Assembly: GCA_031280235.1 (NCBI GenBank)
Contig: JAITHA010000052.1
Span: 13,237 to 77,236 of the forward strand
Length of the DNA stretch: 64,000 nt
Reading direction: 5' to 3'
From: Puniceicoccales bacterium
GTDB lineage: Bacteria; Verrucomicrobiota; Verrucomicrobiia; Opitutales; UBA953
The notes beneath the pieces are model-generated. The model was given only the letters and a program-made list of their open reading frames with translations, made no database searches and was not told the DNA's origin. Positions 14,495 through 51,193 of this stretch are shown here, piece by piece; positions within the stretch are counted from its first letter, which is position 1, and every line of letters starts with the position of its first letter. The translations under genes were made by a program, and so were the position numbers.

Positions 14495-16165
14495 ATGAAC
14501 AAAAACACAATCCGAGATGAAATCATCGCCTATTTCGAGGCGATAAAAACCGGTCTAAATTGCGTTAAAAACTATTGGAAAGATCTTGTCTTTTCATTTT
14601 ACGCTTCCTTGTCTCCTGGGGCGAAAATAGGTTTCACGCTGTTTAACCTGTTTTTGTCTCTCTATCTCAGCGCTGTCATTTGCGGGACCACACATCCTTC
14701 GACATATCCCAAGCTTACTTTTTTCTCAATGGGGATGATTTTTGTTTTCGCCTTCGTTTTTTCGTTTAATTTGATTATTCTTTTTTGCTCCAAGAGCGGC
14801 GTTTTCAATATAAGTCGACAAAATCCGTCGCCTGCCCAAGGCAAAATACAATTTGGAACGTTTGCCTTTTTTGCGATCGCTTGTTTTCTTCTTTTATTTC
14901 TCGTCTTGCTGGCGAATTTCCCTGGTGGCACCGCCCCGGATACCGAACACCAATGGAAGCAGGTTCAGACGTTCATCTTTGACGATTGGCACCCAGCCAT
15001 ACACACATTGTTTATCTGGGTCGTAACGAAGCTTGTCAACCATGTCGCTTTTGTCGTATTTATTCAGATAGCCATATTCAGCTTTGGGGTCGGGTACCTT
15101 GCTGCGACAATGGAGAGAAGAGGTTTCTCCAAGCGCCTTGTTTTATTTTCGGCTGCCTTTATCATTTTGAACCCTTTCACCTTGAATCTTATGATGTATC
15201 CTCTCAAGGATTTGGCGTTTACCATATTGGTGACATATTCTGCGACGTGGCTCATAAACATTTATCTTTCCCGTGGGGCGTGGCTTAAGAAATACGGCAA
15301 TCTTATTCTCTTTGCAGTTGTGCTGGGAATTGCCAGCAAAATCAGGCACAACGGCATATTCTTCACGATCCCATTGCTCTTGCTCATACCCATTTGCTAC
15401 TCCCGGCAAACAAAAAAGGCTCTCCTCGTCCCCATACTGGCGGTAGTTGTTATTCTTGGCATCCGCGGCCCCTTATACACTGCTTTGGGGGTTAAATTCG
15501 TGCCCAATACGGTTGGAGAATCGGTAGGCATTCCTATGACAATTATGGCCGATGTTTTGGTTAAAAATCCAGAACGCTTGACAGCGGAGACCAAGGCGTT
15601 TTTAAACAGAATTGCGGGTGATGAGGAGTGGCTCAGGAAATACTCCCGAGGTGAGTATAATTCCATCAAATATGTCCTTAACGCCCCGCGCGTGGTCGAC
15701 ACAGTCCCAGCTAATGAAATAATGAAGATGACAGTAGATACCATAAGAAATGACCCAAGGAACTCGCTGGAGGCTATTCGTGAGGTTACTTCCTCTGTTT
15801 GGGGATTGGATGGTCGCGTTGATATGATAGAGATTCCAGAACCGTTGGACTCTCAGAGACATATTATTTCGCGCCTGTTGAATTATGCCTTTAAATCGTA
15901 CAGTAGTGCGATCGTAGCGATAGCCCCATTGATCTATGCTTTTACAAAAACTGGCTGGCAGATGCTTGCCTTGCTATTAATTGGCATTCTTTCGTTTTAT
16001 CGAAACGGTGTAGCCGCACTCTTATTTGTCGTGCCAGCGGTGGCCTATAATTTAGGAACGATGTTATTTCTTGCTGGTACTGACATCCGTTATTTCCATT
16101 TTAATGCAGTCATCGTGGTCCCTTTCATCCTTGTGCTATTGGCACGGAAAGAGGCGAAAACGTAA
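14495..16165 (+). CDS. Large polytopic membrane protein, possible GT-C-fold glycosyltransferase or second polymerase
   Basis: 556 aa with many predicted TM helices. The first large loop carries an acidic motif followed by HP (FDDWHPAIHTLFIW). A soluble-looking segment of about 120 aa sits between TM blocks. The start was set at ATG 14495, just after the preceding stop. Confidence 0.4.
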   Translation: MNKNTIRDEIIAYFEAIKTGLNCVKNYWKDLVFSFYASLSPGAKIGFTLFNLFLSLYLSAVICGTTHPSTYPKLTFFSMGMIFVFAFVFSFNLIILFCSKSGVFNISRQNPSPAQGKIQFGTFAFFAIACFLLLFLVLLANFPGGTAPDTEHQWKQVQTFIFDDWHPAIHTLFIWVVTKLVNHVAFVVFIQIAIFSFGVGYLAATMERRGFSKRLVLFSAAFIILNPFTLNLMMYPLKDLAFTILVTYSATWLINIYLSRGAWLKKYGNLILFAVVLGIASKIRHNGIFFTIPLLLLIPICYSRQTKKALLVPILAVVVILGIRGPLYTALGVKFVPNTVGESVGIPMTIMADVLVKNPERLTAETKAFLNRIAGDEEWLRKYSRGEYNSIKYVLNAPRVVDTVPANEIMKMTVDTIRNDPRNSLEAIREVTSSVWGLDGRVDMIEIPEPLDSQRHIISRLLNYAFKSYSSAIVAIAPLIYAFTKTGWQMLALLLIGILSFYRNGVAALLFVVPAVAYNLGTMLFLAGTDIRYFHFNAVIVVPFILVLLARKEAKT

Positions 16166-16253
16166 GATGCGAAAACAGTTGGCACAATGGAATCTGTGAA
16201 ATTGGTGGATAAAACACTCGTGCACTCAGCGCTCACCGCTCTATCATAAAGCT

Positions 16254-18464
16254 ATGACTTTCATGCAGACTAAAACTGAAAACAAAGACAATTTGCCGTG
16301 CAAAACGCAAATTGGTAATTCGTTGCCTGCTGAGCACGAGAACATCCCTGCGTTGGATGGACTTCGTGCGGTGGCTGTCACCGGGGTTATCCTTGGGCAC
16401 ATCAACGAAGCTTGGCTGCCCGGAGGTTTTATGGGCGTCGATGTCTTTTTTGTGCTTTCGGGTTTTCTTATCGCCAGCATCATCCACAAAGATTTGCATC
16501 AAAATACATTTTCTTTCCGGCAATTTTATCAGCGCCGCATCCAAAGACTTTTGCCTAATGCGGCGCTGGCTGTGCTTGTGACACTCGTTTTTATCTGGCT
16601 CATAGGGTTCCAGCGGATGGAAACGCTTTCGGCGCGACACGCTGCTTGGACGCTTCTAAATTTTTCCAATATCTTTGCCTATCAAAATCTGGGTGATTAC
16701 TGGGGAATCGGAGCTGAGAATTCGCCATTCACGCACTTTTGGTCGCTTGGGATAGAGGAACAATTTTATTTTTTATTTCCCTTGGGAATTTTTCTTCTTT
16801 ACAAGATTTTTTATCGGTACTCTGGTGTCAAACTCGCGTTGATATTTTTTGGCGTTTTGGGCGTGCTTTCTTTTTTGCTGGGTTTTTGGCAAAGCTTTAG
16901 AAACCCAGTTCCAGCCTTTTATTTACCGCCTTTCCGATTTTGGGAATTATTTGTGGGTGTGGTACTCGCCTTGTTTATCCAACCATTTATTCCCAAAAGA
17001 TCTGCGCAGGGAAAATCGCTCATAAAGACAGTTTTTGCCTTGCTTGGCCTCGCAGTATTGTCAGTTGTGTATTTTTTCTATGACGACATGTTTCCTTTCC
17101 CTGGATGGATTGCTGCCGTACCCGTTATTGCGAGTGGTTTGGTGATTCTTTCGGTTACGACAGGCAAAAGCATTGTTTCGCGTCTGCTTTCATTCCGCCC
17201 TATAGTGCAGATTGGAAAATATTCTTATTCGCTATACCTTTGGCACTGGCCAGCAATAATTTTAGCAAAATTTTCACTCCCATTTGAAGATTTGGAGATA
17301 AATGTTCTTATTGGTGCCGTCGCGGGAATTATTCTATCGATATTGGCTTATTACTTTGTGGAGAGACCGTTGCGCATTCGTAGTGGTACTGGAAATGTTG
17401 GGAAACGGCGTTATGTGACGACGGCTTTGCTATTTAGCCTTGCGATGGGCGCTTCCTTTGCGACGATGGAAAAATATGAATCCAGGAAAGTTGCTGAAGA
17501 ACTCGCAATCAAAGGAATGAAGGAAAAACTTGAGTTTGCGCCGATACGCTATTCGGGCGAGTTGTATGAACTGCGCGACGGTGCGCGAGCGGAGCCGGTT
17601 GTCTTGGAAGGAAAGCGGAAAAATGTTTTTTGGGCGACAGGCACTGGCAAACGCGTAAACGATGTCCAATTTTTGAGATTCATCGGACCATTACCCAAAA
17701 CATCCCTTGCGCATTCTGTTATAGAGAAGAATTTTGGTGCTCCCGATGCCTTGCGAGTTATGCTGGTGGGCGATTCACACGCGCAGATGTATGGGCTCAG
17801 TATTGAGGAGATTGCAGTGAGCAGGAAGTTAAATGTGCGTTTTGATACTCGCACAGGCACGAGGCTTTTTGAGTTAAAGAAAAGAACGCGGGCCATAGCG
17901 GAGAATATAGCGGTATGGAAACCGGACATTCTTATTTTTGCGGAACGTTGGGATCTTTACAGGCCGCATTTGTTGAAAAGAAAACTATCAGAGCTTATGC
18001 AAGAGATTCAACCGCATGTGTCCACGGTACTTTTAGTCGCGCAAGTTCCTGTCTGTGAATATGGGCAAAATGAAAATCTCCGTGAAAGAATCAATTTACT
18101 TTCCATTAAGGAGGACTCTACAACTCCGAAAATGTTGCAGGATAAAAAGGAAGGGATTCGTCGAAAGAATCTTGCGATCCTCGAAGAAATTACTCAGACA
18201 TTTCCTGTCAGTTCATTGATACGCGCCGACCGCTTTTTTACTAGGCCAGACGGTTCAGTGCTTTATGCAGAGGGCGGGAATTTTTATTATCAGGATAACA
18301 ATCATCTTGCGATGGATGGCGTAAATCTCGTCAGGCCATTATTCGAAGACGCCATAGACAAGTTCATCGAACCCAAAAAGAAAACATCAGCGCAGGGGGA
18401 GGAGGAATTTGCAGGGGATCAATCCCCTGCTGAGAAAGCGGGATTAAAATCCCGCACTCCATAA
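16254..18464 (+). CDS. OafA-type O-acyltransferase: acyltransferase-3 (AT3) membrane domain fused to SGNH domain
   Basis: The N-terminus has ALDGLRAVAVTGVILGH...VDVFFVLSGFLI...FWSLGIEEQFY (AT3). The C-terminus has MLVGDSHA (block I GDS) and DNNHL (DxxH), i.e. SGNH. The alternative start ATG 16263 matches the paralog N-terminus MQTK. Confidence 0.8.
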   Translation: MTFMQTKTENKDNLPCKTQIGNSLPAEHENIPALDGLRAVAVTGVILGHINEAWLPGGFMGVDVFFVLSGFLIASIIHKDLHQNTFSFRQFYQRRIQRLLPNAALAVLVTLVFIWLIGFQRMETLSARHAAWTLLNFSNIFAYQNLGDYWGIGAENSPFTHFWSLGIEEQFYFLFPLGIFLLYKIFYRYSGVKLALIFFGVLGVLSFLLGFWQSFRNPVPAFYLPPFRFWELFVGVVLALFIQPFIPKRSAQGKSLIKTVFALLGLAVLSVVYFFYDDMFPFPGWIAAVPVIASGLVILSVTTGKSIVSRLLSFRPIVQIGKYSYSLYLWHWPAIILAKFSLPFEDLEINVLIGAVAGIILSILAYYFVERPLRIRSGTGNVGKRRYVTTALLFSLAMGASFATMEKYESRKVAEELAIKGMKEKLEFAPIRYSGELYELRDGARAEPVVLEGKRKNVFWATGTGKRVNDVQFLRFIGPLPKTSLAHSVIEKNFGAPDALRVMLVGDSHAQMYGLSIEEIAVSRKLNVRFDTRTGTRLFELKKRTRAIAENIAVWKPDILIFAERWDLYRPHLLKRKLSELMQEIQPHVSTVLLVAQVPVCEYGQNENLRERINLLSIKEDSTTPKMLQDKKEGIRRKNLAILEEITQTFPVSSLIRADRFFTRPDGSVLYAEGGNFYYQDNNHLAMDGVNLVRPLFEDAIDKFIEPKKKTSAQGEEEFAGDQSPAEKAGLKSRTP

Positions 18465-18604
18465 CGGGACGCGTCTTCTTTTCAAACAGTCTTTATTGAA
18501 GGCAAAAACAAATCTCTGGCAAAATTTAATTTGACAAAAGACGAAGGAGTATAGAAATGAGGGATACAAAATTTCATTTTTCCTCCTTCTAAAACCGATT
18601 TTTT

Positions 18605-19765
18605 ATGCAAACAAAAAATATCCACAGCGAAAGAACAATATTGAACGACACCCAACTGGGTCGCTCGTTGCCTGCCGTGCACGAGAACATTCCTGCGCTG
18701 GATGGACTTCGTGCAGTGGCTGTCGTCGGGGTTATTCTTGGCCATGTCAGCGACCTTCTTTTACCGGGGGGGGGCATGGGCGTTGATATCTTTTTTGTCC
18801 TTTCGGGTTTCCTTATCGCGAGCATCATCCACAAAGATTTGCATCAAGGTACGTTCTCTTTCCGTCAGTTTTACCTTCGGCGTATCCAGAGGCTTTTGCC
18901 CAATGCGGCGTTGACGGTGGTGGTGACGCTTCTCTTTGTTTGGCTCATTGCCCCTCAATGGGTGGAAAGGCTTTCAGGGCGCCATGCCATCTGGACTCTT
19001 CTGAATCTTTCCAATATTTTTGCCTTACGTACCCTCGGCAATTATTGGGGTACCGCTGCTTCTGACGCTCCGTTCACTCATTTTTGGTCGCTTGGGATAG
19101 AGGAGCAATATTATGTCCTGTTTCCATTGGTATTTTTCTGTGTTTATAAATTATTTCGTCAGAGAAATAATACGATGCCGATCCTGATTTTCTTTGCTAT
19201 TCTTGCGGTGACTTCCTTTGCATTCTGTTTACGCGAGACATTGCGAGAGCCAACCAGCGCTTTTTTCCTTCCTCAGTTTCGTTTTTGGGAGTTGCTTGCA
19301 GGCGCAGCACTTGCATTGCATGTCAAGCCATTTATCCCAGTCTCAGTGAATCGCCCACGCGCGAAATCATATGTGAAGACAATTTTGGGGATCTTTTGTT
19401 TGGGGGTGATTCCCCTATTCTATTTTCTATATGACGATGGCCTGTTCTTCCCCGGGTGGGTGGCACTGTTGCCGGTTTTGGCGAGTATTGGAGTGATTTT
19501 TTCGATTACTACTTCGAAAGGTATCGCTTCGCAACTACTTTCTTTTAAGCCTGTTGTGCAGGTGGGGAAGTATTCTTATTCGCTCTACCTCTGGCATTGG
19601 CCAGCTATCGTTCTTGCCCGACATTGTCTTCAATTCGAAGACCCGACGCACAGTGCCTTGGTGGGCGCGCTTATAGGAATCCCTTTGGCTGTTTGCGCGT
19701 ACCATCTTGTCGAACGTCCGCTGCGCATTTGTAACGACGGGGGGGGGGGATACGGCGATTTGTGA
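18605..19765 (+). CDS. Acyltransferase-3 domain protein; the 5' part of a second OafA-type gene interrupted at a poly-G tract
   Basis: Colinear paralog of residues 1 to about 385 of 16254-18464. It ends 5 codons after the G11 tract (ICNDGGGGYGDL*). Confidence 0.75.
   Translation: MQTKNIHSERTILNDTQLGRSLPAVHENIPALDGLRAVAVVGVILGHVSDLLLPGGGMGVDIFFVLSGFLIASIIHKDLHQGTFSFRQFYLRRIQRLLPNAALTVVVTLLFVWLIAPQWVERLSGRHAIWTLLNLSNIFALRTLGNYWGTAASDAPFTHFWSLGIEEQYYVLFPLVFFCVYKLFRQRNNTMPILIFFAILAVTSFAFCLRETLREPTSAFFLPQFRFWELLAGAALALHVKPFIPVSVNRPRAKSYVKTILGIFCLGVIPLFYFLYDDGLFFPGWVALLPVLASIGVIFSITTSKGIASQLLSFKPVVQVGKYSYSLYLWHWPAIVLARHCLQFEDPTHSALVGALIGIPLAVCAYHLVERPLRICNDGGGGYGDL
18766..18774 (+). repeat. Homopolymeric G9 tract inside the AT3 part of the second OafA-type gene
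   Basis: Counted directly: ttaccGGGGGGGGGcatggg, encoding LPGGGMG, in frame as sequenced. Confidence 0.9.
19739..19749 (+). repeat. Homopolymeric G11 tract at the frame break of the second OafA-type gene
   Basis: Counted directly: ...gtaacgacGGGGGGGGGGGatacgg... The upstream ORF is in frame 2 and the downstream ORF in frame 1. G12 or G9 would fuse them. Confidence 0.9.
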
Positions 19766-20754
19766 TTACCGTATTACTTTTTATTCTTGCACTGGGCAGC
19801 GCGTTTGCGATGAGAGCAAAATTTTACGCAAGAAGAACAGCAGACAATCTGGCAATTCAAGGAACGGTAGAGAAGCCTGAGCTTGAACCCATATATTATG
19901 GTCATTACCTGCATGATGCGCGTAGAGGAGCCAGGTCGGATCCTGTTGTTTTGGAAGGTCCGCACAAAAATGTGTCGTGGTTTCCAGGGGGCGAGGATGG
20001 GAAGATCCGGTTGTTGAGATTTGATAATCCGTTGCCCTATGATCGGTCCAGAGACCTTGGCATAGTGAAAATGTTTGGCCCTCCTGATGCTTTCCGTGTC
20101 ATGCTCGTGGGGAACTCAATTGCCGCGATGTACGCGCTCGATTTTGAAGGAATAGCGAGAGACAAAAAGATCAACATATGTTTTGCAATCTATGAAGGGA
20201 TGCCGTTGTTTGAAGCGAAGAGGCACTTGTTCACCAAAAGTGATAACGAGGCAGTATGTGAAGAAGTTTCCCGATGGAATCCGGATGCGCTTGTTTTGTC
20301 AATGCTTTGGGATTCTTACCCAACGGCATTTCTTAAAAAGGAGCTTTATGATTTCATTGCAAAAATTCAACCTTATTCAAAAAAGATAATCCTCGTTGCT
20401 CAGCCCCCTACATGTAAATATGGAAATAAGGAGGATCTTCGTGTGAGGATCAATCTGATGGCGATAAAGGAGAAAACGAAGATGCCACGAATGGAGCGAA
20501 ACGAAAATAATGGGCGTTTTTTGCGGAACCTCGCTGTATTGGAGGAAGTCTCTCAGGTTGTTCCTAATTGTTACCTTGTCCGGGTAGACCGTCTGTTTAC
20601 CAAGGCGGATGGCTCTATCCTGTATGCGCAGGAAGGAAAACTTTTCTACAGAGACCCTGAGCACCTTTCCAGAGATGGGGCCGAGCGCGTGCGCCCCTTG
20701 TTTGAAGAGGTGCTAGAGAAAGCGATGAAATTAAAGAAGGAGCAGAATCACTGA
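19762..20754 (+). CDS. SGNH-domain protein with N-terminal TM linker; the 3' part of the interrupted OafA-type gene
   Basis: Colinear with the C-terminal half of 16254-18464. It has MLVGNSIA (block I Ser retained) and DPEHL (DxxH). The GTG start overlaps the upstream TGA as GTGA. Confidence 0.7.
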   Translation: MITVLLFILALGSAFAMRAKFYARRTADNLAIQGTVEKPELEPIYYGHYLHDARRGARSDPVVLEGPHKNVSWFPGGEDGKIRLLRFDNPLPYDRSRDLGIVKMFGPPDAFRVMLVGNSIAAMYALDFEGIARDKKINICFAIYEGMPLFEAKRHLFTKSDNEAVCEEVSRWNPDALVLSMLWDSYPTAFLKKELYDFIAKIQPYSKKIILVAQPPTCKYGNKEDLRVRINLMAIKEKTKMPRMERNENNGRFLRNLAVLEEVSQVVPNCYLVRVDRLFTKADGSILYAQEGKLFYRDPEHLSRDGAERVRPLFEEVLEKAMKLKKEQNH

Positions 20755-20895
20755 ATGCCAATGAAGTTCTAAGCGAATCCCTCTTGCCGAAGCCCCACGA
20801 TGATTTAGGCGAAGGTGCGCGATTGGCAGGAAGGGAAATAGATCTTTCGGGGCTTGGGCATACAGGCGCATTGTCACACACGAAAATATCCAATC

Positions 20896-22050
20896 ATGGG
20901 AAGAAAAAAAACTGTTTTATTTGCCATCGATGCCTTGTATGGCGGCGGTGCGGAAAAGGTACTGATTCATGTTTTGGAACGCCTGGATCGTTCCAAGTTC
21001 GACGTGAGTCTTTTTTTGTTCACGAAGTGTGGGGAGTATCTTAAGAAAGTCCCTGAAGACGTCAAGCTTTTGTTTCTATTTAAGGATCCTTTGGGGTCAG
21101 GGAATGCTTTGGTGCGTTTCTTCCGGCTTGTGTTGCGCTCGCTAGTAATACGTCTTGCCAAGTGTTTCCCTGGCGTTTTGCGCTTTTTTGTTCGCCTTCC
21201 CATGGCGTATGATAGCGGTGTTTCTTTTTGCGAAGGTGTCAACCTTTTATTTTTTGCTGGTTTGGAGGGAAGTTTTGCGCGTCGCGTGAGTTGGATTCAT
21301 CTCGATTTGAGACGCAATTCTTTTGCCTTGGGCTTGCGAGAGTTTTCACGAGTGTTGGGAAAATACGACGATTTTGTTTTTGTTTCTCGTGGGAACAGGG
21401 AGAGTTTTTCTCATTTTTTCCCGGATTTGGAACGCGAGCGCTTGCACGTCATTTATAACCCGGTGGACGTGTCAGGGATTTTGCGCAAAAGTCTGGAGGT
21501 GGAAAACATTCCTTCATCTCCACCGGGGCGATTCCGCATTATGAGTGTGGGGCGCCTTGTATCCGTCAAGCGTTTTGATCGCTTAATAAAAGCGTGCAAA
21601 ATGCTTTGTGCAAATGGCTGCCAAATCGAACTCTTTATTTTGGGTTCTGGCCCAGACGCGCCACAACTCAACAGACTCATTGCCGAATTGGATCTGGGAG
21701 ATGATGTGCACTTGATTCCCTTCCAAGAAAATCCGTATCCATGGCTGAAGAGTGCGGATGTGTTTGTCTCATCTTCGGATTCCGAAGGCCTGCCCTTGGT
21801 TGTTTCGGAAGCCATGATTTTGGGGGTTCCCATTGTGGCGACGCGGACGGTCGGGGCAGGCGAGGTGTTGGAAAATGGCAAGTATGGAGTCTTGACCGAC
21901 TTTTCTGAGTTGGCTTTGGCTGAGGCGTTGATGGGACTTTATCGCGAGCCCCAATTGCGCGAATCTTGCAAGAAAGCGCTCCATGAGGCCTTGGAAAAAA
22001 AGCTCTTGCCATTCAGTGCCACCGTTGAGAGTGTGGAGCGGATACTATGA
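20896..22050 (+). CDS. Glycosyltransferase family 4 (GT-B, group 1)
   Basis: N-terminus VLFAIDALYGGGAEKV. C-terminal motif SDSEGLPLVVSEAMILGVPIVATR (E-x7-E). The start was set at ATG 20896. Confidence 0.8.
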   Translation: MGRKKTVLFAIDALYGGGAEKVLIHVLERLDRSKFDVSLFLFTKCGEYLKKVPEDVKLLFLFKDPLGSGNALVRFFRLVLRSLVIRLAKCFPGVLRFFVRLPMAYDSGVSFCEGVNLLFFAGLEGSFARRVSWIHLDLRRNSFALGLREFSRVLGKYDDFVFVSRGNRESFSHFFPDLERERLHVIYNPVDVSGILRKSLEVENIPSSPPGRFRIMSVGRLVSVKRFDRLIKACKMLCANGCQIELFILGSGPDAPQLNRLIAELDLGDDVHLIPFQENPYPWLKSADVFVSSSDSEGLPLVVSEAMILGVPIVATRTVGAGEVLENGKYGVLTDFSELALAEALMGLYREPQLRESCKKALHEALEKKLLPFSATVESVERIL

Positions 22051-25291: not shown

Positions 25292-26413
25292 ATGAAATTC
25301 TTATTTTCCAAAACTTCATCACACATTTCCACTGATACGGTAGCGTTGGATGATTTTCGCAACAATAATTTTGATTTGGTCCGTTTATTTGCCGCCTCAC
25401 AGGTTTTATTTTTTCATGGTGCATTTCATCTGAAATATTCTCTTGGCGATTTTTGGTTTTTGGAAGCTTTTAAGGGCGTGCCGATTTTTTTTGTTGTCAG
25501 TGGTTTTCTTGTTTCGGCTTCCTTCGAGCGCAGTGAGAATGTGCGCGGATATTTTTTGAATCGCTCCCTGAGGATTTTCCCCGCGCTCTGGGTCTGTCTC
25601 TTGGCCACGGTAGGCGTTATACTTTGGTATGGTGTGAGTTTCCGTTGGTGTGAGTTCTTGCCGTGGCTTGTGGCTCAGAGCACTTTTGGACAATACTACA
25701 ATCCTGATTTTCTGCGCGGTTTTGCGACAGGAGTGATGAACGGCAGTCTTTGGACGATCCCGATTGAGCTTCAGTTTTATCTTTTTTTCCCGTGCATTTT
25801 TCTTTTGCTGCGGAAAATTTTTAGCCGGACTCCGCGCAATGCGGAGATTGTCGGTGCTTTTGTTTTCTTCCTCTGTTGTGCCCTGTTTGTGCTATGGCTG
25901 CGCGATGTGCTCCCAGGGCGATATTCAGCGGCGTACGCGCTCTTGCATAATTCTGCCATGCGGTATTTTTATCTCTTTGTTCTCGGTTGGTTTCTCCAGA
26001 GGAACATCTTGAGTTTGCGCCGCGTGTTTTTCGGGAAAGCTATTTTTTGGATCAGCTTTCATTATTTTTTTACATGGCTTTTTGTGGTGAAGGTCGGTTT
26101 GCTTTACCATCCAAAGCTGTTCCATTGTTTCAATGTCCTTTCCGATTGCGTCCTTGGCTGTGTGGCCATTTCTTGTGCCTACACCTTTCGTGGTCTTGCG
26201 GCGAAGTTGACACGGGGAAATGATATTTCCTACGGCGTCTATATTTATCACATGCCTTTGGTAAATATAATGATTATCAACGGCCTCTCTGGAAATCCTT
26301 TGTCTTTGCCTATTTTGCTTGTGGGGACTGCCATTTGCGCACTTCTATCTTGGTTTCTCGTGGAGAAACCCTGCCTCGCGTTTAAGAAACGAACACTCCG
26401 CGCTTTGGGGTGA
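25292..26413 (+). CDS. Acyltransferase family 3 (AT3) membrane protein, no SGNH domain
   Basis: FDLVRLFAASQVLFFHG...GVPIFFVVSGFLV...LWTIPIELQFYLFFP. 373 aa, about 10 TM helices. Confidence 0.75.
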   Translation: MKFLFSKTSSHISTDTVALDDFRNNNFDLVRLFAASQVLFFHGAFHLKYSLGDFWFLEAFKGVPIFFVVSGFLVSASFERSENVRGYFLNRSLRIFPALWVCLLATVGVILWYGVSFRWCEFLPWLVAQSTFGQYYNPDFLRGFATGVMNGSLWTIPIELQFYLFFPCIFLLLRKIFSRTPRNAEIVGAFVFFLCCALFVLWLRDVLPGRYSAAYALLHNSAMRYFYLFVLGWFLQRNILSLRRVFFGKAIFWISFHYFFTWLFVVKVGLLYHPKLFHCFNVLSDCVLGCVAISCAYTFRGLAAKLTRGNDISYGVYIYHMPLVNIMIINGLSGNPLSLPILLVGTAICALLSWFLVEKPCLAFKKRTLRALG

Positions 26414-26432: not shown

Positions 26433-28589
26433 ATGAGACAAATACTTCAAAATCTAGGCTCTGGGGAGACTATCTTGGCAGAAGTGCCGGCGCCCGGCGT
26501 TCGCTCGGGCTGTTTGCTCGTCGAAACAGAGTTCTCTCTTGTCTCACTTGGGACGGAAAAAATGCTGGTGGATTTCGCTCGTTCTGGCTGGCTGACCAAA
26601 GCAAGCAAACAACCGGAAAAAGTCAAACAGGTACTCCAGAAGGTAAAAACCGATGGTCTTTTTCCGACTTTGGAGGCCGTGCGAACAAAACTTGATGAAC
26701 CGATTGCGCTTGGTTATTGCAATGCTGGACGCGTTGTCGCCGTCGGAGCTGGTGTGCAAGGCTATAATGTGGGCGACCGCGTGGCGTCTAATGGCCCTCA
26801 CGCCGAGCTTGTTTGTGTGCCTGAAAATCTTTGTGCGAAGATCCCCGAAACGGTCACTTCCAGCGATGCCGCTTTCACTATTCTTGCTTCGATCGCATTG
26901 CAGGGGATTCGCTTGTTAAATCCTACTTTAAGTGAGCGCATTGCAGTGACAGGCCTAGGGCTTATCGGGCTTGTCGCTGTGCAGTTATTACAAGCCAATG
27001 GATGTCGTGTTTTGGGCATTGATATTGACCCGGAAAAATGTGCTTTGGCCCGCGAATTTGGCGCTGAAACAGTCAATCTTTCTGTGGGTGAAGATCCGCT
27101 TGCTATTGCAAAAGAATGGACGAAAGGGCAGGGTGTCGATGGCGTGCTTATTACGGCCTCCACGCCGAGCAGCGAACCTGTTTCCCAGGCGGCGCGCATG
27201 TGCCGGAAGCGCGGACGCATTGTTTTGGTCGGTGTGGCAGGCCTAGCACTAAAGCGTGCTGAATTCTACGAGAAAGAGCTCTCTTTTCAGGTCTCCTGCT
27301 CCTACGGGCCCGGACGCTATGATGATGTTTATGAACAAGAAGGGAATGACTATCCGCTCGGTTTCGTACGCTGGACAGAGCAACGTAATTTCACCGCAAT
27401 ACTGGATTTGCTTGCTGCGCAAAAGCTTAATCTGTCGCGTCTTATTTCTCATCGTTTTGATTTCGATAAATCTCTGGAGGCTTATTCGGTTGTCGCTACC
27501 GGGAAGGCGATGGGGATTCTCTTGGCGTACGCTTCTACGGGTGAAGCGAAGTTTAGTCGCACCAAGATGCTTTTCTCGAAAGCTGAAGCTCGCAGCGAAA
27601 ATGGTGTGTGCCCAGTAGTTGTTGGTTTCCTAGGAGCAGGGAATTTCACTGGGCGCATTCTTTTGCCAACCCTGCATAAGTTGCCTGTCCATCTACACAC
27701 TATTGTCTCGAACGGTGGGGTGGCCGGCACGCATCTTGCAAAGAAATTTGGATTTCTGGCGTCGAGTACCGACCCGGAATCTGTTTTGTCCGAGGAGGCT
27801 ATAAACCTTGTTTTTGTGACGACGCGCCACAATGCCCATGCTCGACAGGTGATCGCTGCGCTTGGGGCAGGGAAACACGTTTTTGTAGAAAAGCCACTCT
27901 GTCTGACTTTAGATGAATTAAAAGAGATTCAGGCTGTTGCAGAGGCAAGGCCGAAGCAATTATTGATGCTCGGTTTTAACCGCCGTTTTTCACCGCATAT
28001 ACAAACTCTTAAACGCGAACTCACTGCAATGCGCGGCCCTAAAAGTTTTGTTTTTACGGCCAATGCCGGGGCGATTCCAGAAAGCCATTGGACGCAGAAC
28101 TTGATGCTTGGTGGCGGGCGGATTGTGGGCGAGGCCTGCCACTATTTGGATTTGTTGCGACATCTCGTTGGCGCCCCCGTTGCGAAGGCCTCCATTCATT
28201 ATCTGGGTGGCGAAGAAGGGCGGACGCGCGACACAGCCACAATCCAACTTATGTTTTGCGACGGCTCCATCGGCACCGTTCATTATTTTGCCAACGGAGA
28301 CAAGGGTTTTCCCAAAGAAACACTGCAAGTTTTTGCCGCAGGAAAAATATTCACTGTGGATAATTTTCGGAAAACTTTGGGCTTTGGGACGCGCAAGCAC
28401 AAACTTTGCAGCGGATGGCAACAGGATAAAGGGCACGCCGCCGAACTTGTTGCCCTGATGGAAGCGGTCGCGACAGGAAACCCCTCACCTGTGCCTCTTG
28501 ATGAGATTATAGAGATCAGTCGATTGTCTATTTTACTCGCTGGTGGCACTGGCAATGAAAGAAATGTAGACTGTGATGCTGAGAAATAA
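26433..28589 (+). CDS. Bi-domain oxidoreductase: zinc-type alcohol dehydrogenase-like domain fused to Gfo/Idh/MocA domain
   Basis: The N-terminal MDR/ADH-like part has a Rossmann VTGLGLIGLVAVQLL motif. The C-terminal part has VGFLGAGNFTGR...VFVEKPLCLTLDEL, typical of Gfo/Idh/MocA. The start was set at ATG 26433. Confidence 0.75.
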   Translation: MRQILQNLGSGETILAEVPAPGVRSGCLLVETEFSLVSLGTEKMLVDFARSGWLTKASKQPEKVKQVLQKVKTDGLFPTLEAVRTKLDEPIALGYCNAGRVVAVGAGVQGYNVGDRVASNGPHAELVCVPENLCAKIPETVTSSDAAFTILASIALQGIRLLNPTLSERIAVTGLGLIGLVAVQLLQANGCRVLGIDIDPEKCALAREFGAETVNLSVGEDPLAIAKEWTKGQGVDGVLITASTPSSEPVSQAARMCRKRGRIVLVGVAGLALKRAEFYEKELSFQVSCSYGPGRYDDVYEQEGNDYPLGFVRWTEQRNFTAILDLLAAQKLNLSRLISHRFDFDKSLEAYSVVATGKAMGILLAYASTGEAKFSRTKMLFSKAEARSENGVCPVVVGFLGAGNFTGRILLPTLHKLPVHLHTIVSNGGVAGTHLAKKFGFLASSTDPESVLSEEAINLVFVTTRHNAHARQVIAALGAGKHVFVEKPLCLTLDELKEIQAVAEARPKQLLMLGFNRRFSPHIQTLKRELTAMRGPKSFVFTANAGAIPESHWTQNLMLGGGRIVGEACHYLDLLRHLVGAPVAKASIHYLGGEEGRTRDTATIQLMFCDGSIGTVHYFANGDKGFPKETLQVFAAGKIFTVDNFRKTLGFGTRKHKLCSGWQQDKGHAAELVALMEAVATGNPSPVPLDEIIEISRLSILLAGGTGNERNVDCDAEK

Positions 28590-29697
28590 GAACAACGGAG
28601 CACAAGTGCCCGCCTGGGATGAGAACATCGCCACATTGCGTGCTTTCGCGATGATGCATGTTTTGGTTGTGCACAGCTTGTTTTGGCCAGTGCATCCTGA
28701 ACTTTATTCGGATGCATCGATTTTCCGAGCGCTTTTTCTCTTCGAAATGCCCTTGTTCTTTTTTCTGACCGGTGCGTGCAACAAGTCTGGGAAACGTGGT
28801 ATTCTCAATTTTTATTTTTCTCGTTTTCAACGTATTGTGCCTGCCTATCTCGTGTATTGTCTTTTAGGCGCGGCCCTTACCTTCGCCACGGGGAAAGGAC
28901 TGCGGCAAGGGTTTAGCGACATTTTTTATCTTTTTTCCGTATTTCCGCCGCCTGGGGCGCCCGTCACGCACTTGCCGTATTTGACTCGGGCGCTTTGGTT
29001 TGTCCCTGTTTATTTATCCATTGTTCTTATTTTGCCGCTTCTTCAAAGGATCCATCATTCTTGCCGCCAGCCCTACGCCTGCATTCCCTTTGTTGGCTGT
29101 GCGCTCATTCTTTTCGCTCTGGTATTTTTCTCGTTCCCGGGAAACCCCAGAACTGGAAATATTTTATCCTATGTCATTTTTTATTCTTTTTGGGCCTATC
29201 TTGGATTCTATTACGACAGATTGGATCTACGCGCTGCAGTGAAGACGAAGATCAAGGTGATCCCTCTCATCATCGTTTGTTTTTCCATAACAGGTGTTTT
29301 TGTTTATGGAAATAAAAACTTTTCGGATATGCAGGCCAATAAATTTCCGCCAAATTTTGTTTTTCTGGCCTATTCACTCGGAGTAATGGGTTTACTGTAT
29401 CTTTTTTATTCAACACTTCATCGTTTCCTGGCCTTTTGTCGATGTCTTCCTGCTTTTGCTTGGATATTCACGCAATATTCCACGCACACATACACGATTT
29501 TTCTGTATCACCCTCTGTGTTTTCTGGCCATAAAATTTTTATCAGAATGGCTTGCTCTATGGGATAAACTTTGTGCCCATCCGTTTCTTTGTATTTCTGT
29601 CCATGCAGTGCTGGCGATTCCTCTCGGTGCGATTTTAGGGCGTTTTCTTTCGTGGCCTGAGCGCATTAAGTTTTTCCCTGTAATTGGGAAGTCGTGA
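28573..29697 (+). CDS. Acyltransferase family 3 (AT3) membrane protein
   Basis: IATLRAFAMMHVLVVHS...EMPLFFFLTGA. 374-aa multi-pass protein. Overlaps the upstream gene by 17 nt. Confidence 0.65.
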   Translation: MMLRNKNNGAQVPAWDENIATLRAFAMMHVLVVHSLFWPVHPELYSDASIFRALFLFEMPLFFFLTGACNKSGKRGILNFYFSRFQRIVPAYLVYCLLGAALTFATGKGLRQGFSDIFYLFSVFPPPGAPVTHLPYLTRALWFVPVYLSIVLILPLLQRIHHSCRQPYACIPFVGCALILFALVFFSFPGNPRTGNILSYVIFYSFWAYLGFYYDRLDLRAAVKTKIKVIPLIIVCFSITGVFVYGNKNFSDMQANKFPPNFVFLAYSLGVMGLLYLFYSTLHRFLAFCRCLPAFAWIFTQYSTHTYTIFLYHPLCFLAIKFLSEWLALWDKLCAHPFLCISVHAVLAIPLGAILGRFLSWPERIKFFPVIGKS

Positions 29698-41392: not shown

Positions 41393-41797
41393 GGAGGGGG
41401 TACTACGGAGTGTTTTTTATGCAATATTTGTTTATTCGAAATCAGAGGGGGGGGAATATCTTCTGGTGGTTTCATTGCTTGTGTTTTTTGCTTTTGCTTG
41501 GGGTCGAGCACGTCCTCGTTCCACCATTTACGGAAAGACCCATGGAGATGTTGACCCATGTGGAGGCGGCGGGAACGCGGACACAAACCAGACCATGAAA
41601 CTTCATTCCTGAGAGTGTTGGGCAAGCGAACCCTCACGTGGCTCCGACGCCACCTGAAGCAGGCGGACGAACGGCCCAAAGTGGTCAGCCACCCGCCTGA
41701 TTTAGGTGCGAAAAAGCCAGAGTCGGACGCTCCGCGTTGCGAAGCTCAGGTATGCAAACTCAATCCAACTCCCGCTACAAACTTTACACAGCCATGA

Positions 41798-42313
41798 GCA
41801 GCTCCTGCCAAGACAAGTTTTCGCTGCGCCAGTTTCAGCTGTTCCCGCAACACCGTGCGCGAATGGCTGCATCGCTGGCGCGCAGGCGACCACACCCTCG
41901 CCGACCATTCCCGCCGTCTCCACAATCCGCCCGCGCGCACCAACTGCAACGCCGACGTCGAAAGTGTCCACGCCACCATCGAAAACGAGTTCTTCGATTT
42001 GGAAAACTTTTCGGCCCGCGCGCACTTCATCGCAATGGCAGGCACCTATCAGCACTTCTACAACTTCGCCCGGCAAAACCGCTCGCGCGCCAAGAAAACC
42101 CCGGCCGAATTGCTCCGCGAAAAGCCCCCCGATCTGCACCCTCGCATCCTCCTTTTACACCCTTGCCTTCTCGACGCACACATGGGTCAACTTCTGTCTG
42201 GACCTGCCGCATCCCCGGGCAACGCCTCTTTCGCGAACAACGTGTTTACTCCTCAAACGGCGATTTCCAAGCGAAGCGACAAGACTGGGCACGAAGCAAA
42301 GAAACGACGATGA
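41798..42313 (+). mobile_element. Decayed IS481/IS3-superfamily transposase remnant (HTH part joined to the C-terminal end, DDE core missing)
   Basis: The frame-2 translation gives SFRCASFSCSRNTVREWLHRWRAGDHTLADHSRR (HTH, SrnTV.kWl.Ry-like). It is followed almost directly by NADVESVHATIENEFFDLENF...YQHFYNFARQNRSRAKKTPAELL, which resembles the end of an rve integrase domain. No intact catalytic core and no start codon. Confidence 0.45.
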
Positions 42314-48172: not shown

Positions 48173-49396
48173 ATGTTTATCTTCAATGCTTTTCGAATCG
48201 CATTGAGGGAAATACGGCGCAACTTGACGCGCGCCTTCCTCACTGTGCTTGGAATTATAATCGGCGTCGCCGCTGTTGTGACGATGGTGACCCTCGGGCA
48301 AGGGACTACCGAAGCCATCCAAGCGCAGATCTCAGCCCTCGGCAACAACCTGCTCATCCTCCGCCCAGGTGTCGGCTTCGGCCCACAAATGGCCGCGAGC
48401 GGCGTCCCCAATTTTTCCGAGGCAGACGCCCAGGCCATCGCGCGCCAAGTCCCGGGCATCGCTGCCGTCGCCCCCGTCTGCCGCATGAACATGAGCACCA
48501 TCTCCGAGCAAGACGCCCGCACGACTGCCGTCGTCGGCACCACGCCAGAGTATTTCGACATCAGCCGCTGGATCATAGAGGCGGGCCGCAACTTCAACGA
48601 CACCGAGCTGCTGGCCGGCACACCCGTCTGCATCATCGGCGCAACAGTGCAGAAAGAGCTCTTCAAGGAGGGATTCCGCTCTCCCATTGGCCAAAAAATC
48701 CGCATCGGCTCAGCCTCTTGCGAAGTGATCGGCATCCTCCACGCGAAGGGGCAAATGGGTTCGATGGATCAGGACGATATCATCGTCGTGCCCCTGTCCA
48801 CCATGCAGCGGCGCATCTCTGGGCGCACCACCGTGCAAGACATCAACACCATCTTCATCTCCGCCCAGAACGCCGAAAACACCGATATGGCCACCGAGGG
48901 GATCAACACCCTCATGCACAAACGGCGCAACCTCTCGCCCAACCAAAAACCCAATTTCTCTGTGATCGACGCCCGCCAATTCATGAAGGCCAGAAGCGAG
49001 GCCACAGAGCTTATGACGATGCTGCTGGCAGCCGTCGCCAGCGTCTCTCTCCTCGTCGGCGGCATCGGCATCATGAACATTATGCTCGTCTCGGTAACGG
49101 AACGCACGCGTGAGATCGGCATCCGCCTCGCCATCGGCGCTCGCGCTCGCGAGGTGCTCCTCCAGTTCCTTGTGGAAGCCGTCGTCCTCTCCTGCGCCGG
49201 AGGCTTGCTCGGCATCGGCACCGCCATCGGCCTCTGCATCGGCCTCGCCCCGGTCATCGGTGTCAATTTCACGTTCAACCCCGAGATCAACATCCTTGCC
49301 TTCATCTTCTCCGCCATCGTCGGCATCATTTTCGGCTTCGCCCCAGCCCGCCGTGCCGCGCGCCTTGACCCGATAGAAGCGCTCCGCCACGAGTAA
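48173..49396 (+). CDS. ABC transporter permease, MacB/FtsX-like (4 TM with a large periplasmic domain)
   Basis: N-terminus LREIRRNLTRAFLTVLGIIIGVAAVV. C-terminal FtsX motif GIGIMNIMLVSVTERTREIGIRLAIGAR...PARRAARLDPIEALRHE. Confidence 0.85.
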   Translation: MFIFNAFRIALREIRRNLTRAFLTVLGIIIGVAAVVTMVTLGQGTTEAIQAQISALGNNLLILRPGVGFGPQMAASGVPNFSEADAQAIARQVPGIAAVAPVCRMNMSTISEQDARTTAVVGTTPEYFDISRWIIEAGRNFNDTELLAGTPVCIIGATVQKELFKEGFRSPIGQKIRIGSASCEVIGILHAKGQMGSMDQDDIIVVPLSTMQRRISGRTTVQDINTIFISAQNAENTDMATEGINTLMHKRRNLSPNQKPNFSVIDARQFMKARSEATELMTMLLAAVASVSLLVGGIGIMNIMLVSVTERTREIGIRLAIGARAREVLLQFLVEAVVLSCAGGLLGIGTAIGLCIGLAPVIGVNFTFNPEINILAFIFSAIVGIIFGFAPARRAARLDPIEALRHE

Positions 49397-49486
49397 GGCA
49401 GTAGAGCGCGGACAAGAAATTTTCCCCAAACCACGCCCACTGTTTTTTCTTGCGAAGCCCCCCCCGGTTCAACGCCTTGGGGCGCC

Positions 49487-50224
49487 ATGGAATTTTCGAT
49501 TTTGTTGAACGGGGCCCTGGGTCGCATGGGTCGCGCCATCCTGGAAGCAGCGAGAGACAACAACTTGTCCATTGCGGCAACGATAGATCGTGATGACGAC
49601 GCGAAGGCCGCGTTTGCCATCACAAAAGCTGGAGTCGCCATCGACTTCAGCCACCACACGGCAACGTTCCCTCTCGCGCGCTTGTGCGCCGCACACGGCA
49701 CGCCGCTCATCATCGGCACAACGGGCCACAGCGAGGAAGAGAGAGCGGGCATTCTCCAAGCCGTTACCAGCATACCCGTCGTATGGGCAGGCAATTATTC
49801 CATCGGCGTGACACTGCTGAACCACCTTGTGCAGATAGCCGCCCAAACGCTCGACGCCAGCTACGAGGTCGAGTTGGTGGAAATGCACCACCGGCACAAG
49901 AAGGACGCCCCAAGCGGCACCGCAGCAAAGCTCCTGCAAATCATCCGTGAGGCACGCTCCCTCCCGTCTGAAGCCTTGCGCCACGGGCGAAACGGACTGG
50001 TGGGCGAACGGCCCACAGGTGAAATCGGCGTGCACGCCTTGCGGGGCGGCGACGTCATCGGCGATCACACGGTGCTCTTCGCGGGAGAGGGCGAGCGGCT
50101 TGAGCTGACGCACCGCGCCTCCAGCCGGGCGATCTTTGCGACGGGCGTCATTCGGGCAGCGCACTGGGTGCGCGGACGCGCGCCAGGCATCTACGGCATG
50201 GAAGACGTGCTGGGCATCGGCTAA
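49487..50224 (+). CDS. dapB: 4-hydroxy-tetrahydrodipicolinate reductase
   Basis: GALGRMG N-terminus, EVELVEMHHRHKKDAPSGTA signature, HALRGGDVIGDHTVLF. Confidence 0.8.
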   Translation: MEFSILLNGALGRMGRAILEAARDNNLSIAATIDRDDDAKAAFAITKAGVAIDFSHHTATFPLARLCAAHGTPLIIGTTGHSEEERAGILQAVTSIPVVWAGNYSIGVTLLNHLVQIAAQTLDASYEVELVEMHHRHKKDAPSGTAAKLLQIIREARSLPSEALRHGRNGLVGERPTGEIGVHALRGGDVIGDHTVLFAGEGERLELTHRASSRAIFATGVIRAAHWVRGRAPGIYGMEDVLGIG

Positions 50225-50317
50225 GTGCGGCCCACGGCGCAACGAAGCACCGCGCCCACGCACCAGCGTGATTTCACGCCTTGCCTTGGCACGCTTTGCA
50301 CGCATTTCCAAGAGGCC

Positions 50318-51193
50318 ATGGCTCTCATAGACGGAAACCTTGTCGCCCGCCAGATCCTTGACGAAATCAAGGCCTGCGTCACAACGCTCTCTCCCCTCGT
50401 GCCTCATGTTGCCTTTGTGCGTGTCGGCGACGATCCAGCCTCCGTTTCCTACGTCAACAAAAAGCAAAAGACATCCGAGGAACTCGGCATGAAATCCAGC
50501 CTGCATCTTTTCCGTGAAGATGTGAGCCAGGAGGAACTTTTCGCACAGCTCGACGCACTAAATGCCGACGCCACCGTCCACGGCATCCTTGTGCAAGCGC
50601 CCCTCCCGGCGCATCTGGATGCCACACTCGTCTTCAACCGCATCTCGCCGAAGAAAGACGTCGATGGCTTCACGACGACCAGCATCGGGCGCCTCGTGCA
50701 GGAAGTCCCCGGCGCCTTTGCCGCTTGCACGCCAGCTGGAATCATCGAGCTGCTGAAACGTTCCGGAGCGCCAACACGCGGGAAGCACGCCGTCATTGTT
50801 GGGCGCAGCCTCATCGTCGGCAAACCCGTGGCACTGATGCTGGTTGCGAAAGGCCTTGATGCCACGGTGACCGTCTGCCACTCGCGCACGGCAAACCTCG
50901 GGGCCATCACACGCGAGGCAGACATCCTGATAGCCGCCATTGGCCGCCCACGCTTCATCACCGCAGACATGGTGCGAGAGGGCGCCATCGTCATAGACGT
51001 GGGGATAAACCGCGTGCCCGAGGCCTCGAAGAAAACGGGCTACAGACTCGTGGGAGACGTGGATTTCGACAGCGTCGCGCCAAAGGCCGCACTCATCACA
51101 CCTGTGCCCGGCGGCGTCGGCCCGATGACGGTGGCCATGCTCATGCAAAACACGTTGCACGCCGCCCTGCTTTCTCGCAACGAAGCGGCTTGA
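50318..51193 (+). CDS. folD: Bifunctional methylenetetrahydrofolate dehydrogenase/cyclohydrolase
   Basis: VRVGDDPASVSYVNKKQK, ILVQAPLP, KDVDGF, VIVGRSLIVGKPVA, TPVPGGVGPMTVAML. The start was set at ATG 50318. Confidence 0.85.
   Translation: MALIDGNLVARQILDEIKACVTTLSPLVPHVAFVRVGDDPASVSYVNKKQKTSEELGMKSSLHLFREDVSQEELFAQLDALNADATVHGILVQAPLPAHLDATLVFNRISPKKDVDGFTTTSIGRLVQEVPGAFAACTPAGIIELLKRSGAPTRGKHAVIVGRSLIVGKPVALMLVAKGLDATVTVCHSRTANLGAITREADILIAAIGRPRFITADMVREGAIVIDVGINRVPEASKKTGYRLVGDVDFDSVAPKAALITPVPGGVGPMTVAMLMQNTLHAALLSRNEAA

Follow-up and report, generated by a model that had tools for sequence, protein, structure and literature searches.

The stretch of DNA analysed here (the window, 64,000 nucleotides) belongs to a metagenome-assembled genome (MAG) of a Puniceicoccales bacterium (GenBank assembly GCA_031280235.1, contig JAITHA010000052.1, positions 13,237 to 77,236 of the forward strand). 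It carries two tandem genes of the OafA type, in which an acyltransferase-3 (AT3) membrane domain is followed by an SGNH domain. The first gene is intact, and the second is divided into two open reading frames (ORFs) at a run of eleven G residues (G11), a candidate phase-variation switch. This run is the longest homopolymer of the window, whose G+C content is 52.4%. The features of the gene pair, all on the plus strand, are as follows.

16254-18464 (+): intact tandem paralog, AT3-SGNH, 736/733 amino acids (aa), MDR2512878.1, with a homopolymer at neither homologous site
18605-19765 (+): upstream ORF of the split gene, 386 aa, complete AT3 membrane domain (PF01757 match)
18766-18774 (+): second tract, G9, in frame, CCG GGG GGG GGC for P54 G55 G56 G57, a possible slippage site near the 5' end
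19739-19749 (+): G11 homopolymer, frameshift point between AT3 and SGNH, Gly379-Gly382 in the repaired frame
19750-19828 (+): region coding for IRRF and the 11th transmembrane helix (TMH11) in the SGNH frame, residues 383-408 (hydropathy, model)
19762-19765 (+): GTGA, the stop of the AT3 ORF overlapping a possible GTG start of the SGNH ORF (sequence)
19762-20754 (+): downstream ORF, 330 aa, GTG start, with most of TMH11, the linker and the SGNH domain (PF19040 match)
20116-20118 (+): codon of Ser505, the SGNH block I nucleophile, in the context GNSI against the family's usual G[SD]SH (alignment)
20653-20664 (+): block V, D684-P-E-H687, with the catalytic Asp and His (alignment)

Two reading frames meeting at G11

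The change of frame between the AT3 ORF and the SGNH ORF falls exactly at G11, which is preceded by TGTAACGAC (with more of the flank, CGCATTTGTAACGAC) and followed by ATACGGCGATTTGTGATTACC. In the G11 frame the upstream ORF ends in RICNDGGGGYGDL, 16 nt past the tract. The gain of one G or the loss of two produces a single ORF of 716 or 715 aa, respectively, reading NDGGGGIRRFVITVLLFILALGSAFAM across the junction, and the repaired gene of 2.15 kb has no other stop or frameshift. The lengths G9, G12 and G15 are in frame and join both parts into a single enzyme, whose loop then has 3, 4 or 5 glycines; with G10, G11 or G13, translation of the AT3 part stops soon past the tract and the SGNH part lies in a different frame. 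The assembled sequence represents the out-of-frame state. The AT3 and SGNH domains are found on one polypeptide neither as assembled (G11) nor in the G13 version of a second assembly (Logan, see below), and they are joined once one G is added or two are removed. G11 is a long tract that toggles the reading frame by changes of its length, as is expected of a contingency locus.

The upstream ORF matched only Acyl_transf_3 in Pfam (PF01757, E 9.2e-31, residues 30-366), and the only match of the downstream ORF was PF19040, 'SGNH domain (fused to AT3 domains)' (E 3.1e-22). An earlier note on this DNA had placed the G11 run at the frame break, had assigned the AT3 domain alone to the upstream ORF and the linker and SGNH domain to a downstream ORF whose GTG overlaps the preceding TGA, and had predicted that G12 or G9 would fuse the two into a protein of roughly 715 aa; the sequence, the ORF list and the Pfam matches bear this out. 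At NCBI, the SGNH half is annotated as a separate hypothetical protein (LBD01_03680; P0128, 100% identical) and not as part of a frameshifted gene, and the numbering of the accessions suggests that the AT3 half is a separate coding sequence as well. An exact look-up of the 386-aa product returned no record.

Judging from its sequence, the gene would encode an OafA-type AT3-SGNH O-acetyltransferase once repaired, and the genomic context suggests O-acetylation of a surface carbohydrate. The signature motifs of these enzymes (R/K-X10-H in TMH1, FFxxSG and RxxR) were taken as defined previously (PMC7448272). In an alignment of 26 sequences, the AT3 motifs are kept in invariant columns as R36-X10-H47, FFVLSG (F63-F64-V-L-S67-G68) and RRIQR (R93-I-Q-R96), and the SGNH triad S505/D684/H687 is present in the repaired protein. 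The GNSI context of block I was considered as a mark of an inactive enzyme and was rejected: the residue before the Ser varies (D/S/N) in the homologs, and the nearest of them apart from the paralog (P0002) is also without the His.

AlphaFold2 modelled the repaired protein with confidence (mean pLDDT 83.7, pTM 0.80). Because sequence searches of the PDB with the SGNH half alone or with a 26-sequence profile gave no usable match, the fold of the model was compared, and in Foldseek its C-terminal domain matched GDSL/SGNH esterases and PatB peptidoglycan O-acetyltransferases (TM 0.6-0.75 normalised to the target). The glycines encoded by the tract lie in a short modelled loop (375-380) between helices 347-374 and 381-420, and hydropathy analysis gives a hydrophobic segment, TMH11, at 379-408. 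According to the model, the tract codes for the loop joining TMH10 of the acyl-CoA-conducting AT3 domain to TMH11, the helix that takes the chain across the membrane to the SGNH domain. By analogy with the published topology of OafA, the loop with the tract glycines would be cytoplasmic (PMC7448272). The equivalent loop of the homologs is basic and contains glycine (consensus RxRGxGRxxR), and the gain or loss of one glycine, in length steps of three nt, should be tolerated in it.

The split gene could also be functional as it stands, either as an AT3 protein cooperating with a TMH11-anchored SGNH protein made via GTGA, or through correction of the frame by slippage of the RNA polymerase or the ribosome on the G run. 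The GTGA overlap would allow translational coupling or re-initiation, and the downstream ORF, which starts just inside TMH11 and keeps most of the helix, could stay membrane-anchored. Moreover, acetyltransferases consisting of AT3 alone are known, four to six of them in this locus and Oac/WbaK elsewhere (PMC7448272, PMC9558356), and a tRNA-Gly could re-pair in any frame on a run of G. The SGNH half found nothing but itself in a word-indexed search, and an exhaustive HMMER search revealed at least one genuine stand-alone homolog (P0132), which has a lipoprotein signal peptide. However, most of the short SGNH matches from HMMER were fragments at contig edges, and fusion is by far the rule in the family: the 120 best full-length homologs, which come mostly from Verrucomicrobia, are without exception AT3-SGNH fusions of 633-749 aa. 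The GTG start also drops the positively charged IRRF flank of TMH11. A Shine-Dalgarno motif is absent before this GTG, as it is before most genes of the window. There is no sign of programmed frameshifting: a stimulatory RNA structure was looked for in the 101 nt that follow the tract, and their folding is at the level of shuffled sequence (z = +0.68). A functional split or a recoded gene is considered very improbable.

Two uninterrupted G tracts and an intact paralog

In dinucleotide-preserving shuffles of the window, the mean expectation for G11/C11 runs was 0.05 against the one that is seen, with at least one such run in 4 of 100 shuffles, and a geometric extrapolation of run lengths predicts 0.03 G/C runs of at least 11 per window. 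The second tract of the gene, G9, was absent from the earlier note. G11 and G9 are the only G/C runs of at least 9 in about 77 kb of this genome (the window and 13.5 kb of Logan contigs), and both lie in one gene of 2.15 kb. GGG makes up 22.5% of the Gly codons in the window. The two uninterrupted G tracts are peculiar to this one gene, because all nine other runs of at least three Gly in the window are written in mixed codons. The tract is over-represented relative to both composition and codon usage.

The G9 tract replaces a Phe, part of a GGF motif, that is conserved in 96% of the homologs, and creates the substitution F57G. At the homologous site the paralog reads CCCGGAGGTTTT, with a TTT codon for the Phe and no homopolymer. 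No G/C run of at least 10 was found in 1.82 Mb around 160 homolog-carrying loci of other organisms. These loci contain a single G9 (L005 2375-2383, RFVF01000136.1, from the MAG Proteobacteria bacterium WB5_2B_004), which lies in frame within an intact 660-aa OafA-like AT3-SGNH gene and encodes LLGGGF where TMH11 begins, within a few residues of the site that G11 occupies in the window gene.

The paralog at 16254-18464 has both Pfam domains on one protein. It aligns with the repaired protein over the whole length, with 381 of 718 positions identical (53%), and at the site homologous to G11 it reads CGTAGTGGTACTGGAAATGTTGGGAAACGG. The colinearity with this paralog, its lack of a homopolymer there and the retention of the block I Ser and of DxxH in the SGNH half (S505, D684 and H687), all proposed in the earlier note, were found to hold. 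In a protein search of 5.8 billion sequences, the best homolog was the paralog itself at 53% (P0001, MDR2512878.1, 'MAG: acyltransferase [Puniceicoccales bacterium]', 100% identical to the copy in the window), and the next one, at 37%, is fused. The GTDB representative genomes were searched for close relatives, with 35% as the best identity. The JGI metagenomes had 0 matches to an exact DNA pattern that ran across the tract and allowed a gap of variable length, and a protein-guided scan of the same metagenomes reached 44% at best, over the AT3 half.

Two side observations concern the paralog. The DNA of the tandem copies is 86% identical over 18725-18815, in the N-terminal part of AT3, against an amino-acid identity of 53% overall, and this likeness could reflect strong constraint or gene conversion. 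A 45-aa ENA fragment on a 573-bp contig (P0122) clusters with the intact paralog at 90% or above, and the organism or a close relative may be present in another, ENA-assembled sample.

Tract length in a second assembly

An independent assembly of the same strain was found among the Logan contigs of run SRR14710902, a run number for which a literature search gave no paper. On the upstream side of the tract these contigs match the window at 100% identity for 9.49 kb, a stretch that contains the G9 at the same length of nine, and on the downstream side for 9.10 kb. The tract is precisely where the Logan assembly is interrupted: contig _4229 has CGAC-G13-ATACGGCGATT at its end, and contig _30105 starts with G11-ATACGGCG. 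Only two further breaks fall within the window, at about 41560 and about 42180, around a non-coding-looking stretch; breaks are therefore few, and the one at the tract is attributed to the tract. The break in a k=31 de Bruijn graph would mean that no single length has continuous k-mer support and that the reads disagree on the number of G's. Because the reads seem to disagree in this way, the G11 of the MAG consensus is unreliable as a statement about the organism.

One rival account of these lengths is a miscall. The allele that dominates would then be in frame (most simply G12), the gene would be nothing other than an intact AT3-SGNH paralog, and G11 would be an error of assembly or sequencing. 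Two assemblers gave different lengths for the same strain (G11 and G13), the k=31 assembly did not bridge the tract, and both halves are otherwise fully open and colinear with the paralog. There is also a precedent in Bifidobacterium breve, where the G11 of the RefSeq genome is a minority length and G12 the majority, and where Illumina artefacts at G tracts were reported (PMC9187656). On the other hand, the two assemblies do not differ in any other part of the 18.6 kb. The assembly is not generally prone to homopolymer errors, because the G9 and all the A8/T8 runs agree. In addition, an in-frame length came from neither assembler. We regard a simple miscall as unlikely; moreover, a coding run of 12 G would still be hypermutable, and this explanation overlaps with a phase-variable tract rather than excluding it.

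A candidate contingency locus for a surface glycan

The gene pair lies in a surface-glycan locus, which was recognised as follows.

485-36026 (+): same-strand surface-glycan biosynthesis locus (Pfam matches of the window genes)

Its genes encode an aminotransferase, epimerases, glycosyltransferases of GT2, GT4 and GT8, a PMT-like protein, a Wzy-like membrane protein, a GtrA-like protein and a UDP-sugar dehydrogenase, and a Wzy_C gene lies directly upstream of the window. In addition to the two AT3-SGNH paralogs, there are four AT3-only genes, two in the window (25292-26413 and 28573-29697) and two upstream of it (L164 908-2035 and 2053-3156), giving six AT3 genes in about 45 kb in all. The glycan probably carries heavy and variable O-acylation. 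A promoter and terminator scan of 16000-21200 gave the same signal counts as shuffled sequence, with none above chance separating the genes.

The favoured reading, to which we give an even chance, is that G11 is a maintained slipped-strand contingency locus, that is, a phase-variation switch, in one of two tandem AT3-SGNH genes. Slipped-strand mispairing at replication would change the G run by one residue in either direction at high frequency, and the population would then mix cells that add this O-acetyl group with cells that do not, with the intact paralog working on. The in-frame G9 near the 5' end could act as a second switch. The OFF state may also lower the expression of the downstream glycosyltransferases by polarity, given that the genes follow one another closely on one strand with no terminator-like signal between them. 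The earlier note had proposed such a switch from the G11 run, and the proposal is strengthened by the second G tract, by the mixed codons of the other Gly runs, by the tolerant loop and by the glycan locus; it is weakened by ambiguous length data and by signs of decay.

Several points weigh against the switch. A tract in the middle of a gene is less typical of ON/OFF switches than one close to the 5' end. Both lengths seen in the MAG and Logan assemblies (G11 and G13) are OFF, and neither assembly contains an in-frame length or contig. The break and the G13 end can be explained by noise of Illumina sequencing or of the polymerase chain reaction at G tracts (PMC9187656). Since G13 is out of frame, an in-frame contig is absent and G tracts trouble Illumina sequencing and polymerases, the Logan lengths are no proof of biological heterogeneity, and the data cannot separate real switching from miscounted G's. 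In the collections searched, no related strain, ortholog or second sample was found in which tract length or conservation of the split could be compared.

The last of these points concerns decay. Among 130 positions conserved at 90% or more in 119 homologs, the split copy departs at 31 and the paralog at 23. Nineteen departures are shared, and the split copy has 12 of its own (F57G, F169Y, Y221F, P224Q, G265C, F427L, H506I, V525I, N611D, R639F, G677E and F680L) against 4 private to the paralog, a difference that is not significant (two-sided binomial p about 0.08). The excess of private departures, F57G, H506I, N611D and R639F among them, may be decay, and at the level of sequence the pattern fits a somewhat relaxed or shifted constraint, as in a locus that is often OFF, a diverging duplicate or an early pseudogene.

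An early pseudogene would have arisen if one of the duplicates was dispensable, a G-rich stretch expanded by slippage and the frameshift became fixed, leaving a tract without a maintained function. The redundant intact paralog immediately upstream is in keeping with this history, as are the tract lengths, which are out of frame wherever observed, and the private departures, which include the conserved Phe lost to G9 and three highly conserved residues of the SGNH domain. Against it, the 2.15 kb contain no further stop or frameshift, the catalytic and signature residues are all kept, and the model is confident. Furthermore, two uninterrupted G tracts in one gene, of a kind avoided in the other Gly runs of the genome, are not predicted by neutral decay, and the excess of private substitutions, besides falling short of significance, is also expected for a gene that is OFF part of the time or has diverged in specificity. 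An early pseudogene is likewise considered unlikely.

A more elaborate form of the switch would alter the domain architecture. In-frame lengths would give the fused enzyme, and out-of-frame lengths an AT3-only protein together with a TMH11-anchored SGNH protein made via GTGA, with altered acceptor specificity or efficiency; combined with G9 and polarity on the downstream glycosyltransferases, a single gene would have at least three heritable expression states of glycan decoration. We consider this version highly unlikely.

Repeat-mediated phase variation of surface-glycan genes is a classical phenomenon, and the poly-G loci of Campylobacter jejuni are surface-glycan genes controlled by homopolymers. 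The genes concerned in C. jejuni and Vibrio cholerae encode other enzymes, and switching rates and phenotypes have been measured there. In two reports, homopolymer indels in glycan genes are linked to heterogeneity within a strain that affects recognition by phages and the immune system, for example in the O1 antigen genes of V. cholerae, whose tracts are poly-A (PMC3441752, PMC8224891).

Closer comparisons come from the enzyme family. In Haemophilus influenzae, oafA, an AT3 O-acetyltransferase of lipooligosaccharide, is phase variable through an intragenic repeat and was frameshifted in the first genome sequence (PMC9558356). The window gene resembles it in belonging to the acyltransferase-3 superfamily, in modifying a surface glycan, as predicted, and in carrying a simple repeat inside the coding region. 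However, the repeat of oafA is a tetranucleotide in a pathogen with many characterised contingency loci, whereas the tract described here is a homopolymer at the AT3/SGNH junction in an uncultured Verrucomicrobial MAG, for which switching is proposed from sequence. In the Salmonella proteins OafA and OafB, a 10-TMH AT3 domain is followed by an 11th TMH and then, after a structured linker, by a periplasmic SGNH domain, whose triad is Ser/Asp/His and which is necessary for acetylation of lipopolysaccharide (PMC7448272). The repaired window protein has the same two-domain architecture, with a similarity too low for a PDB sequence match. The expression of Salmonella oafB is also phase variable (PMC9558356), but there the switch is epigenetic, depending on methylation upstream of the gene and not on a repeat in the coding region.

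The tract itself has its nearest counterpart in B. breve UCC2003. In bbr_0113, the G11 of the RefSeq genome splits a pilus gene into the a and b ORFs, and error-corrected sequencing of single-colony cultures showed about 37% G11 and about 60% G12 (PMC9187656). As in the window, a G11 (or G10) run splits a surface-structure gene in bbr_0113a/b and bbr_1889a/b, and one G more or less fuses the ORFs there. Polarity on downstream genes was also discussed for these tracts (PMC9187656). The B. breve cases differ in concerning pilus genes of an Actinobacterium and in having been validated by maximum-depth sequencing and engineered in-frame strains, while switching at the window locus is proposed from sequence. 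Within the same phylum as the window, the genome of Akkermansia muciniphila carries (C)10 in the acyltransferase gene Amuc_2098 and (G)8 in the capsule gene Amuc_1413, for which phase variation by slippage was proposed from sequence (PMC3048395). The two cases share the phylum, long G/C homopolymers in surface-polysaccharide genes (in Akkermansia, capsule or exopolysaccharide genes with an acyltransferase among them) and a phase variation that is so far a proposal; Amuc_2098 was reported intact and not split.

What sets the present case apart is that the tract lies where the two domains join, that the gene has a second tract and a clean tandem paralog, and that it comes from this lineage. Good documentation of repeat contingency so far comes from a small number of host-adapted pathogens and from a few commensals. 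If the favoured reading is true, such contingency would extend to an uncultured Verrucomicrobial lineage (Puniceicoccales), free-living or host-associated, and O-acetylation of the surface polysaccharide would be a variable trait, plausibly a defence against phages or grazers. Since neither the mechanism nor the enzyme family is new, the gain is incremental. For annotation, pairs of 'hypothetical proteins' in MAGs can be a single gene broken at a homopolymer, and the homopolymer lengths of a MAG consensus should not be taken as the biological state.

Elsewhere in the window, the gap of about 620 nt between the Logan contigs (about 41560 to about 42180) lies between an aldose-epimerase gene and thiH and contains no gene recognisable by Pfam. 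An ORF at 41855-42313 (+) has a C-terminus that resembles by eye the end of a DDE transposase, with no match in Pfam, and a remnant of an insertion sequence or a repeat, suspected as the cause of these two Logan breaks, is an impression here. The sole further G/C runs of at least 8 in the window are a G8 at 41447-41454, which is intergenic and lies 55 nt upstream of the start of a minus-strand aldose-1-epimerase gene, and a C8 at 49458-49465, which lies between the convergent genes 48173-49396 and 49469-50506.

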